DNA from: Desulfotalea psychrophila LSv54
GTDB taxonomy: Bacteria > Desulfobacterota > Desulfobulbia > Desulfobulbales > Desulfocapsaceae
Reading direction: 5' to 3'
Assembly (NCBI RefSeq): GCF_000025945.1
Contig: NC_006138.1
Span: 120,001 to 152,000 of the forward strand
Length of the DNA stretch: 32,000 nucleotides
In this document: positions 27,053 to 32,000 of the stretch, one piece after another
Position numbering within the stretch: position 1 is the stretch's first letter
Layout: every line of letters begins with the position of its first letter
Position numbers and translations under genes: made by a program
Notes under the pieces: model-generated
What the model saw: the letters and a program-made list of their open reading frames with translations, nothing else
Databases searched by the model: none
Told to the model about the DNA's origin: nothing

Positions 27053-27901
27053 TCAATCGGATAAAGTGGCTTGCAAAAGTTTTTCCAAGGATGGCTTTTT
27101 CTGAAAGAGAAGCTCTTTAAAGAGATCCGCACAGACATGTTGTGGATTGTTTCTTAAAAAATCGTAGGCTTTAACATAATTACGCTGGACGAAGACCTGA
27201 ACCATCTCATCTATTTTAGGATGATCCGGAGCCACTTCAAGAATAAAGATGATGGCATTAGGGGTCAGATGAACAATCTTGTCGCTCTCCTTAATTGCAT
27301 AAATACCCTCAAATATGGTTGCAACCTGAGGGTGCCCCAGCTCCTCCTGAAGGAGAAGAACGGCAATATTGGGATGAGAGTGAAACATCTCTTGAATAAG
27401 AGCTGCTGCATGTGGACTTTCCGGCTGATCCTGAATAAAATCATAGGCACAGGCAATGTCTATGGAGGCAAGATCCCTTGCCAGGGCTGAGCTCAAGGGA
27501 TGATCGGGCATTGTCTGCAAAATATAGGCAATAACAGTTGATGACAATTCGTTTACATAATCTTCTTCAAGCTTATACATCCCTTCAATAATAGAGGAGG
27601 CGCCCTTATGATCCGGCATCCTCTCAAGCAACCTTACGGCACTGTCATAGTTCAAGCCCTTCATAGACTGAGTGGTCGTTGCATACATCTGGTTTAATAA
27701 AATTTCCGCCTGAGCTGAATCTGGATAATTATCAATAAAATCAAAGGCCCGGGCAAAATCCCAACCGGTTATCTGGCCCGGCTTAGACTTAACTGCCTCA
27801 AAATCATCAAGAATTTTCTGTTCCGCAGCTGTCACAGGCTGAGTCGACTGCTTATCTTCTGCCTTACTACCACCCCAAAGATTCCACATCATATTAACCA
27901 T
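27053..27901 (-). CDS. Hypothetical helical-repeat protein (alternating A/B repeats)
   Basis: The 282-aa product has three A-type repeats (ARAFDFIDNYPDSAQAEILLNQMY, ACAYDFIQDQPESPHAAALIQEMF, VKAYDFLRNNPQHVCADLFKELL). These are interleaved with B-type repeats (VRLLERMPDHKGASSIIEGMY, AYILQTMPDHPLSSALARDL, VLLLQEELGHPQVATIFEGIY, IFILEVAPDHPKIDEMVQVF). Confidence 0.75.
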   Translation of the reverse strand: MVNMMWNLWGGSKAEDKQSTQPVTAAEQKILDDFEAVKSKPGQITGWDFARAFDFIDNYPDSAQAEILLNQMYATTTQSMKGLNYDSAVRLLERMPDHKGASSIIEGMYKLEEDYVNELSSTVIAYILQTMPDHPLSSALARDLASIDIACAYDFIQDQPESPHAAALIQEMFHSHPNIAVLLLQEELGHPQVATIFEGIYAIKESDKIVHLTPNAIIFILEVAPDHPKIDEMVQVFVQRNYVKAYDFLRNNPQHVCADLFKELLFQKKPSLEKLLQATLSD

Positions 27902-28034: not shown

Positions 28035-28898
28035 TCAGCAATCAATATTACTAAGAATTTTCAGTGATATGGCACTAGCATCATCGTGCTTCTTAAACCT
28101 GGGCCAGGAGATACAGTCGGGATCACTGTTCTGCCACGAACGGACATCTTCACGAAGGGCGGCAAGACCGCCATTCTGATAGGCTTTGACCATTTTCCCA
28201 AGTCCGCTCTGCCCCTCACCGGGGAGCAACAGGCCATCGGAAAAGAGAAGCATGTCGACAATACCGGCACGGGGTTCAAGACCTGTCTGCAAAAAGCCCA
28301 AAGCCCTCTCCTCCCCTGTCAAGACACCATAATCAATATTCATGCGCCGACGAACCTCGATAATTTGTTGACGCATTCTGGGATGTTTCCGGGAAGTGGA
28401 CAAGCCGCCAAGAGACTCCATCAACGCCAGAGTCTGCCTGTCATGATCCTCAACCCTGTTTATCTGCCGATAGGAACCATCTCCATAAATAAAGAGCAGT
28501 CGACAATCGCCAAGGGCACACCACTCTATACTGTTTCTATGAATTTTAATAACGGCAAGGCTGGTAGCCCATAGATTTTCACCAAGAGAGCGATCCACCC
28601 CCTCTTGCTCCATCTTTTGCCATATAGCCCTATTGGCAACCGTCGCGCGCATGGCAAGAGTTCCCTTCCCCCTGGCAAAGGTTTCTGCTGCAAGGTCCGC
28701 AGCTATCCTCCCACCGGTGCTACCACTGTACTTACAGGAAACCAAACTTGTGGAGCCATCGTAGACGCCAAAAACATCGGCTGTGATAGAAAGAGAATCC
28801 TCGTTAACAGCACTACTGCCCTGCTCTAGCAGGCTCTCCACAAAATAATCTTCAGTATAAGAAACTGGTTCCTGCAGTGACGTCTGTAGAGAGCACAT
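28035..28898 (-). CDS. PP2C-like (PP2C_2-type) protein phosphatase family protein
   Basis: NEDS, VFGVYDGSTS, ALGDCRL, LLFSDGLL and HDDASAI are spaced as in PP2C metal-binding motifs. The second motif is degenerate (DGSTS instead of DGxGG). Confidence 0.75.
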   Translation of the reverse strand: MCSLQTSLQEPVSYTEDYFVESLLEQGSSAVNEDSLSITADVFGVYDGSTSLVSCKYSGSTGGRIAADLAAETFARGKGTLAMRATVANRAIWQKMEQEGVDRSLGENLWATSLAVIKIHRNSIEWCALGDCRLLFIYGDGSYRQINRVEDHDRQTLALMESLGGLSTSRKHPRMRQQIIEVRRRMNIDYGVLTGEERALGFLQTGLEPRAGIVDMLLFSDGLLLPGEGQSGLGKMVKAYQNGGLAALREDVRSWQNSDPDCISWPRFKKHDDASAISLKILSNIDC

Positions 28899-29058: not shown

Positions 29059-29086
29059 TTGACAAGAACAGGGAAAAAACTATATA
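29059..29086 (+). promoter_or_regulatory. Candidate sigma70 promoter of the arsR/smtB-permease operon
   Basis: TTGACA (29059-29064), a 16-nt spacer, then TATATA (29081-29086). An AAGGAGGG RBS sits at 29110-29117 and the ATG at 29127. Confidence 0.5.
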
Positions 29087-29106
29087 TGAACATATATTCA
29101 CATATA
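29081..29106. promoter_or_regulatory. 12-2-12 imperfect inverted repeat, ArsR/SmtB-type operator
   Basis: TATATATGAACA-TA-TATTCACATATA has 10 of 12 arm positions complementary. The core TGAACA-nn-TATTCA matches the SmtB/CzrA-class operator as I recall it. It overlaps the -10 element and the predicted transcription start. Confidence 0.55.
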
Positions 29107-29126: not shown

Positions 29127-29477
29127 ATGGCCGCAGACAAATGCGACACAAGAATCATTCACGCTGAGCGGGTAGCAAAAGCCCACAAAACAGCGATACA
29201 AGGAGAAGAGGCAGAGACCCTCTCTCAATTTTTCAAGGTGTTTAGTGACCCTGGAAGGTTACGGATTTTATCTGCCCTCCGCCATCAGGAGATGTGCGTC
29301 TGTGACCTCGCTGCCTTTTTACAGGGTTCAGAATCAGCAGTAAGCCATCAGCTTCGCCTGCTGCGCACCATGAACCTGGTGAAAAATCGCCGAGAAGGTA
29401 CTGTCCTCTACTACCGTCTCACGGATAAACATGTAGACGAAATCATTGTCACTGGACTAACTCACATCAAAGAATAA
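29127..29477 (+). CDS. ArsR/SmtB-family metalloregulator
   Basis: A winged helix-turn-helix is present (RLRILSAL..EMCVCDLAAFLQGSESAVSHQLRLLRTMNLVKNRREGTVLYYRL). There is an alpha3 CVC motif, Cys6 in the N-terminal arm, and a C-terminal D-x-H-x10-H-x2-E pattern (DKHVDEIIVTGLTHIKE) matching the SmtB alpha5 Zn site. Confidence 0.92.
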   Translation: MAADKCDTRIIHAERVAKAHKTAIQGEEAETLSQFFKVFSDPGRLRILSALRHQEMCVCDLAAFLQGSESAVSHQLRLLRTMNLVKNRREGTVLYYRLTDKHVDEIIVTGLTHIKE

Positions 29478-29487
29478 GGAAGATATC

Positions 29488-30570
29488 ATGTTCGAAACCA
29501 TCGATAAGGTGCTGTTCGCCTCCTGGGCAATACTCCTTGACTCCGCACTCTATATGCTCATAGGAATCTGCATCGCAGGGTTCCTCAAGGTATTTCTCAA
29601 CCCCAACTTTATTAGCCGTCATCTGGGGCAGGGTCGCTTTGCCTCCGTACTCAAGGCGGCATTTCTAGGTGTCCCCCTACCGCTCTGATCTTGTGGCGTG
29701 TTGCCGGCGGCAGCATCACTGAAGAAACAGGGCGCAAATAATGGGGCAACAACTGCCTTTCTTATCTCAACCCCGGAATCAGGAGTAGATTCAATAGCGG
29801 TAAGTTATGCCCTGCTTGATCCCATCATGACCATAATGCGCCCCCTGGCAGCATTCGTTACCGCTACCCTGGCAGGATTTTTAGAAAATATTATCTCCTA
29901 CAAGAGGCAAGCTCCTGCCATCCAAATGTTTTCAGAGGTTGAAGAGACAGAGGAGTGCTGCTCCGACCCTGCCTGCGGCTCGACCAACAGGAGCGGTGAC
30001 ACTCTACGGCACAAACTCGTAGAGGGTATTCGTTTTGCCCTCTTCGATGTATGGGCAGATATTGCCCTGTGGTTTTTTGCAGGTGTCATCCTTGCCGGAA
30101 GCATTACCGCCCTGGTACCAACAGGAATAATAGAGAACTGGCTGGGTGGAGGCATAGAATCACTCCTGTTAATGCTTGTCTTTGGTATCCCCCTCTATAT
30201 CTGCGCAACAGCATCAACGCCAATTGCAGCCGCCCTTATCCTCAAGGGAGTCAGCCCCGGAGCTGCCTTGGTTTTTCTCTTGACAGGACCTGCTACCAAT
30301 ATCACTTCACTATCAGTTCTATTGAAGATACTGGGAAAGAAGGGCACCATCAGATACCTCATCTCCATTGCCGTAATGGCAGTGATTTTTGGCCTGCTAA
30401 CCGATTCCATCTACAGCAGTCTGGGGATTTCCCCACGGGCAATTATCGGTACAGCCGCAAAAATTGTACCTGATACAGTACAGATAACCTGCGCCATAAT
30501 TCTGGTATTGCTCACCTATAACCCCCTGTTTACTTACCTCAACATAACGTTTAAAAAGAAAAAACGATAA
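29488..30570 (+). CDS. DUF318/ArsP-type (SO_0444-like) metal(loid) permease read as one 360-codon gene with the in-frame TGA at 29686-29688 as candidate selenocysteine
   Basis: Track ORFs 29488..29688 and 29698..30570 are in the same frame, and the only interruption is one TGA. The joined sequence reads ..AAFLGVPLPL-[TGA]-SCGVLPAAASLKKQGANNGATTAFLISTPESGVDSIAV... The second half carries the repeat-2 signature GIPLYICATASTPIAAALILKGVSPGAALVFLLTGPATN. There is no SD sequence before the GTG at 29698. The start is 10 nt after the arsR stop. Confidence 0.7.
29693..29719 (+). promoter_or_regulatory. Candidate bacterial SECIS-like hairpin downstream of the in-frame TGA
   Basis: An 8-bp core GUGUUGCC (29698-29705) / GGCAGCAU (29709-29716) includes two G-U pairs and has a G-containing apical loop GGC. 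It can be extended with bulges to 29693/29719. The first loop G is 20 nt from the U of UGA. Confidence 0.4.
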
Positions 30571-30587: not shown

Positions 30588-30634
30588 GGCCTAACCTATA
30601 GTAATTTAGTCTACAGGTTAGGCTGTTCCTTTTA
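30588..30634 (+). terminator. Possible terminator after the permease gene
   Basis: A 9-bp stem GCCTAACCT (30589-30597) / AGGTTAGGC (30615-30623) has a large 17-nt loop, followed by TGTTCCTTTT. Confidence 0.4.
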
Positions 30635-30701: not shown

Positions 30702-31691
30702 ATGCACTCAGGTCGTTTATGGCAACGAATAGTAAATACAGAACGCTGGGGACTTCGGGCACGACTGGCATATACTACTGGATTTCTTTTACTTATTGGC
30801 GCATCGGTCACTCTCTTTGCCATAGCAAGTAGCCTCCATCACAGTACCGAAAAAAGCATCCAAACAAGAATAGACAATTTCACCATCCTCCTCTCCCAGG
30901 CAACGACTCATATCTCCTCACAGCTTCTGGAAGAGGCAAGCTATATCAGTATCAATCCTGATGTCCAGAAAAGTCTCAGACAAAATAAGCCTGACCTCCT
31001 AGGCGACAAGATTTTCACCTCTCTGGAAAAAATTGCCCTTCTCAGTAAACGCTCACCAACACAGATTCAGATATTCACCCCAACCCTTAAACCATTTTTC
31101 CAAGCCCAGACCAACATCCCAGCAAGAGGAGCCGATGAGTTTCCTCTACTCAAGGCAAGCAAAACATCTTTACAGCCAGCAGCAGGACTTAAAAAGAGCT
31201 CGGGGAAAATAGTCTTTACGGCAAGTGTACCTATTACTTACCAAGGGCAGCTCATTGGCTTTGCCCTGGCGACACGCCCCTTAGAAACACTCAAGCTCAA
31301 TCTGGACCAGACAATCTCCCATAATTTTAGCCTCATCATAAGCACCGATCAAGAAAAGACACCAAAGGCCACCGGCAAAAAAGAGCGCATTGCTATGAGC
31401 TGGGGGATTCCCGATCAAACCAACTCAGCCCCCACAACCTTACCCTCCAAGTCCATCTACACCAAAATAGTTCCCCTTATGGCCTACGATGGCAAAGAAA
31501 TTGGCACCACCCAGATTAACTTTGACGGCAAGGCCTTCTTAAGCCAGGCAGAAAAGACCATCTACATCCTCTTTTTCACCACCGTCATCGGTGTAAGTCT
31601 GGTCTTCCTCTCTATCTTTTGGAATGTCAATATGATCCGTGACTGCCTGAAGCAGATCAAAAAATCACTTATCTCATCGCACTCCAATGAT
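30702..31691 (+). CDS. Two-TM sensor protein, N-terminal part (Cache-like periplasmic domain); probably the 5' portion of a frame-disrupted chemoreceptor-type gene
   Basis: This ORF is not in the supplied track; I translated it by hand. AAGGAGG lies at 30691-30697 and the ATG at 30702. There are 329 sense codons to TGA 31689-31691. TM1 is LAYTTGFLLLIGASVTLFAIASSL. A periplasmic region of ~230 aa shows Cache-like strands (GKIVFTASVPITYQGQLIGFALATRPLETL; IYTKIVPLMAYDGKEIGTTQINF). TM2 is TIYILFFTTVIGVSLVFLSIFW. Confidence 0.85.
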
Positions 31692-32000
31692 TTTAGCGAA
31701 CGCTTCAACCTCAAGCCCGTTCACTGCCGGGAAATGTTAAACTGCTCCCACAAAGAGTGTCCTGTCTACCAAGAACCAAGCAAAATCTGCTATCTGGAAA
31801 CCGGAGATGAGGCCATTTCTCCCGCCAACAGAGGTGCCTGCATTTTTTTAAACCAATACAAACACTGCACAAACTGTCCTGTCTACGAGACACAACGCGG
31901 AGATGAAATAACGGAGATCAAGCAGATTGTAAATACCATCATGGGCCTGTGGAGCGACTTTCTGGGAGATGTTTCCAATCTCCTCGCCGATGTCTACAAA
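31651..32000 (+). CDS. Continuation in the +1 frame: HAMP-connector-like segment, 7-Cys module, HAMP AS2-like helix (3' end lies outside the window)
   Basis: The frame with codon starts at 31681, 31684 and so on is open from 31651 to the window end. It reads ..HSNDFSERFNLKPVHCREMLNCSHKECPVYQEPSKICYLETGDEAISPANRGACIFLNQYKHCTNCPVYETQRGDEITEIKQIVNTIMGLWSDFLGDVSNLLADVY. The only in-frame start is the ATG at 31735. It is best explained as the same gene as 30702..31691 after a 1-nt frame break between 31651 and 31688. Confidence 0.7.

Follow-up and report, generated by a model that had tools for sequence, protein, structure and literature searches.

The permeases of the SO_0444 family carry a conserved Cys-Ser-Cys motif that is "occasionally" replaced by selenocysteine (Sec, U)-Ser-Cys, as described for Desulfomonile tiedjei WP_014809615.1 and its closest homologues, and only one other transporter family stands beside it in the selenoprotein-detection reference data of the NCBI annotation pipeline (Haft, bioRxiv 10.1101/2022.07.06.499078). 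A 2026 review of the prokaryotic selenoproteome lists it as "SO_0444 family Cu/Zn efflux transporter, NF033936, UxC", alongside other transporter selenoproteins such as MerT-like proteins, YeeE/YedE, SaoP and an E1-E2 ATPase (PMC13188914). Here we analysed a member of this family in a stretch of 32,000 nucleotides (nt) of Desulfotalea psychrophila LSv54 (the window, to which all position numbers refer), in which the first Cys codon of the motif is replaced by an in-frame TGA. Comparison of sequences makes it almost certain that this TGA encodes selenocysteine and is served by a recoding hairpin of its own, in a membrane transporter for metal efflux. The initial annotation of the locus had left it undecided whether the Sec form was catalogued and had regarded Sec in a transporter as unusual; the Sec-Ser-Cys variant is already catalogued and its concept published in the two sources above, and with the other transporter cases recorded in the second of them Sec in a transporter is less unusual than was supposed.

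On the functional side, Shewanella oneidensis was found to need SO_0444 when stressed with ZnSO4 or CuCl2, a result backed by complementation (PMC3219624), and a Nitratiruptor homologue of the family is induced by Cd and Cu (PMC10092412). By analogy with the Shewanella fitness data the D. psychrophila permease may export Cu or Zn, with which its SmtB-like regulator is consistent. The two loci share the family and its motifs and both pair the permease with a metal-responsive regulator, but the motif holds Cys in S. oneidensis and Sec here, and the regulator is a ZntR/MerR-type activator there and an SmtB/ArsR-type repressor here. With the published Sec forms the D. psychrophila gene has in common the family hidden Markov model, the position of U-S-C and an anaerobic host of the Desulfobacterota; it differs in belonging to a Desulfocapsaceae clade where Sec is the majority state among close relatives, whereas the published text speaks of occasional replacement in the D. 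tiedjei clade, and in that at least two hairpin designs were found here. The ArsP organoarsenical permeases, which are often controlled by ArsR, share the PF03773 domain and a vicinal Cys pair in the equivalent membrane segment but form a subfamily apart; the motif here stands in the context PLPL-U-SCGVLPAA, the protein matched no model specific to ArsP and its substrate is probably different. In the MerT-like, YeeE/YedE, SaoP and E1-E2 ATPase selenoproteins Sec likewise occupies a presumed substrate-contact or gating position of soft-metal or chalcogen transporters, although their folds and families are unrelated.

This analysis adds modestly to the published work. GenBank mis-annotates the D. 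psychrophila gene, which is also missing from the selenoproteins listed for this organism in 2006 (PMC1794560), the constraint on the recoding element is shown against Cys-form controls, and Sec forms appear as common rather than occasional among SO_0444 orthologues of sulfate reducers, with two hairpin classes. The practical value lies in annotation.

A permease gene interrupted by a single TGA

On direct reading, two open reading frames (ORFs) of the forward strand, 29488-29688 (66 aa) and 29698-30570 (290 aa), lie in one frame with a single TGA (29686-29688) between them, followed by the three sense codons TCT TGT GGC (29689-29697) before the GTG of the second ORF. The read-through junction is GVPLPL-*-SCGVLPAAASLKKQGA. 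This arrangement had been noticed initially, as had the absence of a translation start signal for the second piece, and both observations held, as no AGGAGG-like ribosome-binding site was found upstream of GTG 29698. The two ORFs are one gene of 360 codons (29488-30570, forward strand, Sec67 included), interrupted only by the TGA. The deposited GenBank annotation splits this gene and calls only the 290-aa piece, which is 100% identical to the "hypothetical membrane protein" of D. psychrophila LSv54.

With Cys put at the TGA for profile matching, the 360-aa product scored 412.6 bits against NF033936, the NCBIfam model of the SO_0444 family Cu/Zn efflux transporter (curated cutoff 300), residues 12-345 covering model positions 1-349 of 351. 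The match to Pfam PF03773 (ArsP_1; 7e-45, 153.9 bits) applies at superfamily level only, and the second-best model, that of the SaoE efflux transporter (NF040736), scored 186.6 bits and fell short of its cutoff of 325. By these profile matches the joined protein belongs to the SO_0444 family and is a predicted inner-membrane Cu/Zn efflux permease. The earlier proposal of a DUF318/ArsP/SO_0444-type permease was thus right as to the PF03773 domain and the SO_0444 subfamily, while the protein is not ArsP proper.

Full-length homologues at 53-60% identity align over the entire permease, and all invariant columns are retained on both sides of the TGA. The column of the TGA itself holds Cys in 23 of 23 aligned full-length homologues and is invariant across 46 sequences, within the motif G-[VIL]-P-[LI]-P-L-C-S-C-G-V-L-P-A-A, which agrees with the initial annotation, where the TGA had been placed at a conserved Cys of a C-x-C motif subject to alignment with homologues. 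U67-S68-C69 of the permease aligns to the invariant C-S-C in the first half of the family, the UGA (29686-29688, forward strand) standing at its first position. In the second half, the motif GIPLYICATASTP contains Cys239 (codon 30202-30204, forward strand), which is also invariant in 46 sequences.

Conservation of the TGA and of a Sec-specific hairpin

Protein-level searches yielded nearly only Cys forms, the closest full-length database proteins all being Cys forms at no more than 62% identity, whereas scans at the DNA level showed the opposite among close relatives, because gene callers truncate the Sec forms and thereby hide them in protein databases. Species-representative genomes were searched with a degenerate DNA pattern demanding TGA at the Sec codon, which gave at least 120 stretches; 70 of the 120 listed were genuine SO_0444 genes with TGA at the same codon, so that at least 70 other genomes carry it. 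At these loci the frame is open for about 65-150 codons before the TGA and for about 290-360 codons after it where uncut by the end of the contig or stretch. Among the matches listed the carriers were almost all Desulfobacterota, and they include the cultured Desulfocapsaceae Desulforhopalus singaporensis DSM 12130, Desulfopila aestuarii DSM 18488, Desulforhopalus sp. IMCC35007 and Desulfosediminicola flagellatus IMCC35005. Metagenomes were scanned with peptide patterns that excluded the critical codon, and the best 80 relatives were retained, 79 of them with a readable motif. In these the codon was TGA in 46 and TGT or TGC in 33, a ratio that describes the neighbourhood of a Sec-form query and not the whole SO_0444 family. 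Surveys of selenoproteins that start from predicted proteomes would have a general blind spot for such forms, and similar genes may be mis-called elsewhere.

Downstream of the TGA lies a hairpin of the bacterial selenocysteine insertion sequence (SECIS) type (29698-29716, forward strand), in which the stem is formed by 29698-29705 (GUGUUGCC) with 29709-29716 (GGCAGCAU) around a GGC loop (29706-29708). The 8-bp stem starts at the 10th nucleotide after the TGA and the loop, which holds a G, lies 20 nt from the U of UGA, and the GC-rich hairpin with a loop G noted initially at this distance is hence confirmed. Bacterial SECIS elements are hairpins that follow the UGA directly within the reading frame, some 20 nt separating it from an apical loop that holds a G. 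The D. psychrophila hairpin and its relatives of the same design (class A) fit these elements in distance, loop G and size, and may by this likeness bind SelB. As in the fdhF-type SECIS of Escherichia coli, the hairpin is placed 3' inside the ORF with an apical-loop G about 20 nt from the UGA; its sequence differs, with a 3-nt GGC loop and no bulged U evident.

The Cys forms served as a natural control, as they encode the same peptide (SCGVLPAAAS or SCGVLPAAVS) and codon 1 is Cys in place of TGA. Across 59 distinct class-A Sec sequences the third-position entropy of codons 5-10, the six codons which build the hairpin, was 0.53, 0, 0.12, 0, 0.60 and 0.69 bits, against 1.83, 1.40, 1.77, 1.96, 1.85 and 1.95 bits in the Cys forms. 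The flanking codons of the same class-A sequences were free (1.4-1.9 bits), and the constraint is therefore local and does not stem from close relatedness. The mean minimum free energy (MFE) of nt 10-48 was also lower in class A than in Cys forms (-13.4 and -9.4 kcal/mol, p = 2.7e-7). In an alignment of 58 class-A sequences the 8-bp helix was paired in 96.6% of cells and no slid register equalled it, double-sided changes occurred at three stem pairs (G-C to A-U, C-G to U-A and U-A to C-G), and RNAalifold independently recovered the inner six pairs. Conservation of the hairpin with compensatory support, and of the TGA together with it in related genomes, had been named initially as tests of the proposal; the hairpin shows both the pairing and some compensatory changes besides its Sec-specific synonymous constraint, and the TGA recurs at no fewer than 70 loci in genomes and at 46 in metagenomes. 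Of the two lines of evidence for the hairpin, covariation is weaker than the synonymous freeze specific to Sec forms.

A second design (class B) was found in 50 further Sec forms (loci including L007, L022, L026 and L132-L200), which carry GCAGC-CGUGUC-GCUGC as their element, at nt 22-37 downstream of the TGA, and have the peptide AAVSLR instead of AAAS. In these the synonymous freeze has moved to codons 8-12 (0.14, 0.14, 0, 0.14 and 0.14 bits) and the mean downstream MFE was -12.1 against -9.4 kcal/mol in the Cys forms (p = 2.2e-4). One locus (L013) showed a third variant, GCCUGC-UGUA-GCGGGC. On a neighbour-joining tree D. psychrophila falls within a class-A clade of mostly Desulfocapsaceae-type sequences and the Cys forms are scattered among the Sec forms, with about 11 parsimony changes between Sec and Cys, a count that is unreliable given the very short internal branches. 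We tentatively propose, at slightly less than even odds, that among SO_0444 orthologues of sulfate reducers Sec is common, perhaps ancestral, and has been swapped with Cys several times, with at least two structurally distinct SECIS designs placed at different offsets in one and the same strongly conserved stretch of peptide-coding sequence. If so, nature would have provided in this family an experiment on the building of a recoding signal within a constrained ORF, and on the benefit of a selenolate ligand to a metal pump where the habitat is sulfidic.

Three observations were made alongside these comparisons. In one Cys form (L199), nt 16-28 after the Cys codon (CUGCC-UGC-GGCAG) could still fold into the five inner base pairs of the class-A helix and may be what is left of a SECIS once Sec had given way to Cys; remnants of this kind have been described in other families (PMC1794560). 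Two contigs of one Desulfocapsaceae metagenome-assembled genome (CAZUUJ01; L077 and L107) each carry a class-A Sec-form gene with identical site peptide and different DNA, and represent either two paralogues or a bin of mixed strains. A contig of 2.7 kb assigned to a Phycisphaerae bin (L026) carries a class-B Sec form whose hairpin is nearly identical to those of Desulfobacterales, which suggests a binning error or horizontal transfer.

Proposed mechanism and competing explanations

We propose that the UGA at 29686-29688 would be translated as selenocysteine in the SO_0444-family permease, the hairpin within the ORF (29698-29716) recruiting SelB and Sec-tRNA(Sec) in such a way that the ribosome inserts Sec and does not terminate. 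The product would bear Sec67-Ser-Cys69 in place of the Cys-Ser-Cys of its relatives, and U-S-C, lying at a helix break, would probably form a soft-metal site in the translocation path together with Cys239. As a selenolate is deprotonated at neutral pH and more thiophilic, it could give tighter or faster handling of the metal. An SmtB-like repressor, co-transcribed with the permease, would bind the TGAACA-N2-TATTCA palindrome over the promoter, and binding of Zn, Cd or a similar metal would release it so that the pump is made on demand. The Sec reading offered in the initial annotation is upheld by the Cys column, the conserved TGA, the hairpin with its Sec-specific constraint and a documented Sec-decoding host, D. 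psychrophila being a Sec-decoding deltaproteobacterium for which Zhang et al. 2006 (PMC1794560) list 12 selenoproteins, SelD among them. To the explanation as a whole, comprising one gene, Sec67 inserted by means of the hairpin, a metal pump and SmtB-like control, we assign a probability of roughly 0.88.

The structural part of this proposal draws on an AlphaFold model of the closest Cys form, not of the window protein (mean predicted local distance difference score 78.3, predicted template modelling score 0.76). In this model C-S-C begins a helix (68-80) after a break at 62-67, and Cys239 ends a helix (222-239) that is followed by a similar break, which appears to mirror the first-half break before U-S-C. 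Sec67, Cys69 and Cys239 are thus a candidate soft-metal site in the translocation path, with Cys239 as a putative partner ligand. Elevator-type carriers showed weak fold similarity to the model (template modelling score 0.3-0.4), a hint at most. The Cys-rich loop EECCSDPAC between the two halves of the protein is present on direct reading (residues 155-163), though at 29950-29976 (forward strand), a few bases off the 29955-29980 given for it earlier. Its place has no predicted secondary structure in the model of the Cys form, and homologues have a longer Cys/His-rich loop there; the loop of D. psychrophila has only CC...C. Many homologues also carry a Cys/His-rich C-terminal tail (e.g. GCGCSxxxC…HHD; alignment columns 400-447), and the D. 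psychrophila permease has none. A possible role of a selenolate along the route by which a pump moves its metal can be tested directly, given the existing pairs of Sec and Cys forms, the two hairpin designs and hosts in culture, among them Desulfopila aestuarii and Desulforhopalus singaporensis.

Several points weigh against the proposal. All evidence for Sec in SO_0444 proteins, the literature included, is computational. The single-sequence fold of the D. psychrophila hairpin (z = -1.65 against shuffled sequences) is not significant alone and cannot decide, and the case for the hairpin is for this reason comparative; the covariation within it is modest, both sides of a pair differing in 4 cells among the 58 class-A sequences, and thin because the stem hardly varies. 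No selA, selB, selC or selD was found in the window, where the tRNA scan gave no tRNA, the Rfam scan gave no family and the genes neighbouring the operon are housekeeping genes, and the presence of the Sec machinery is hence taken from the literature. Neither the PDB sequence search nor the fold search gave a significant match to a solved relative of the permease.

Among the competing explanations, the one that survives best accepts the recoded UGA and departs from the proposal in the cargo, which would be not Zn or Cu but a metalloid or organometal (such as methylarsenite, as for ArsP), Hg, Cd, or a Se or S species, the family name being misleading. Such a cargo is suggested by the ArsP_1 domain, by the Transporter Classification Database (TCDB), which puts relatives in an organoarsenical exporter family, by the ArsR/CadC-like CVC motif that the regulator holds beside its Zn site, and by the response of the Nitratiruptor homologue to Cd and Cu. 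The protein nevertheless clears the SO_0444 equivalog cutoff by a wide score (412.6 bits against 300) where the SaoE model fails, and all four alpha5 Zn ligands of SmtB are present in the regulator, and we consider a different cargo unlikely.

Read-through of the UGA by a near-cognate Trp or Cys tRNA, with the hairpin merely slowing the ribosome, appears very improbable. Low-level UGA read-through exists in bacteria, but the position is that of an invariant Cys, a site that would not tolerate Trp, the distance, loop G and size of the hairpin fit SelB-type elements, and all carriers found sit in Sec-using lineages, mostly Desulfobacterota.

A pseudogene, in which a Cys-form permease had suffered a strain-specific TGY-to-TGA nonsense mutation, would need a change of one base from TGC or TGT, and would agree with the GenBank record of the 290-aa fragment only and with the Cys state and limited identity of the nearest full-length database proteins. 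Those databases, however, hide the Sec forms through gene-caller truncation; the same TGA occurs in at least 70 other genomes and on 46 metagenome contigs with intact ORFs on both sides, every invariant residue downstream of it is retained, and the Sec-specific synonymous constraint coincides exactly with the hairpin. As the TGA is shared across species and accompanied by this constraint, a strain-specific nonsense mutation is effectively refuted. A split transporter assembled from a 66-aa and a 290-aa peptide, with termination at the UGA and restart at GTG 29698, is scarcely credible either, for although both pieces are ORFs and the GTG stands 9 nt past the stop, this GTG has no ribosome-binding site and is replaced in many orthologues (L019, L035, L043) by ACG or ACA (Thr), which is no start, the first Cys of the most conserved motif would be dropped and the motif cut in two, and the conserved hairpin would be left without a role.

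The regulator, the operon and flanking elements

Upstream of the Sec-containing permease gene lies a gene for an SmtB/ArsR-family metal-sensing repressor of 116 aa (29127-29477, forward strand), which matched PF01022 (HTH_5; 4.5e-16) and NF033788 (96.8 bits) and has the zinc sensor SmtB as its best solved relative (E 3.2e-23). All four alpha5 Zn ligands of the pattern D-x-H-x10-H-x2-E are kept, D100, H102, H113 and E116 aligning to D104, H106, H117 and E120 of SmtB, and the protein also holds a CadC-like C57-V-C59 and an N-terminal C6. The gap between regulator and permease is 10 bp, and a homologue of the regulator stands immediately upstream of the permease at 83 of 105 Sec-form loci and 24 of 30 Cys-form loci. 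An SmtB-like sensor in one operon with the permease, as the initial annotation had it, is borne out by the aligned ligands and by this recurrence. Regulator and permease form a self-contained efflux operon of two genes, predicted to be inducible by metal, and the arrangement is conserved.

Direct reading suggests a putative promoter before the regulator gene (29059-29086, forward strand), with TTGACA (29059-29064), 16 nt and TATATA (29081-29086); the consensus promoter scan did not report it, as that scan demands T at the last position of the -10 element. The -10 region is overlapped by a candidate operator, the inverted repeat TATATGAACATATATTCACATATA (29083-29106, no strand assigned) with the core TGAACATATATTCA at 29087-29100, which we take to resemble operators of the SmtB/CzrA type. 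A TGAA-N6-TTCA core was found within 130 nt upstream of the regulator gene at 34 of 95 related loci (36 of 95 with spacers of 4-10 nt), against 1 of 95 controls. Behind the permease gene a terminator-like hairpin (30588-30624) is followed by the U-tract UGUUCCUUUU (together 30588-30634, forward strand; -19.1 kcal/mol, z = -2.63); a loop of this length lies beyond what the scan applied to the window accepts.

The reverse strand upstream of the operon carries a gene for a 282-aa protein with internal D-Y/F-I motif repeats and no Pfam match (27053-27901) and another with a weak PP2C-like phosphatase match (28035-28898, E 4e-6), both probably unrelated to the operon. Downstream, an ORF of the forward strand that runs off the end of the window (30703-32000) encodes a membrane-anchored protein in which a predicted transmembrane segment precedes two Cys-rich repeats (HCREMLNCSHKECPVY and CIFLNQYKHCTNCPVY); the protein resembles a sensor bearing a metal or Fe-S site.

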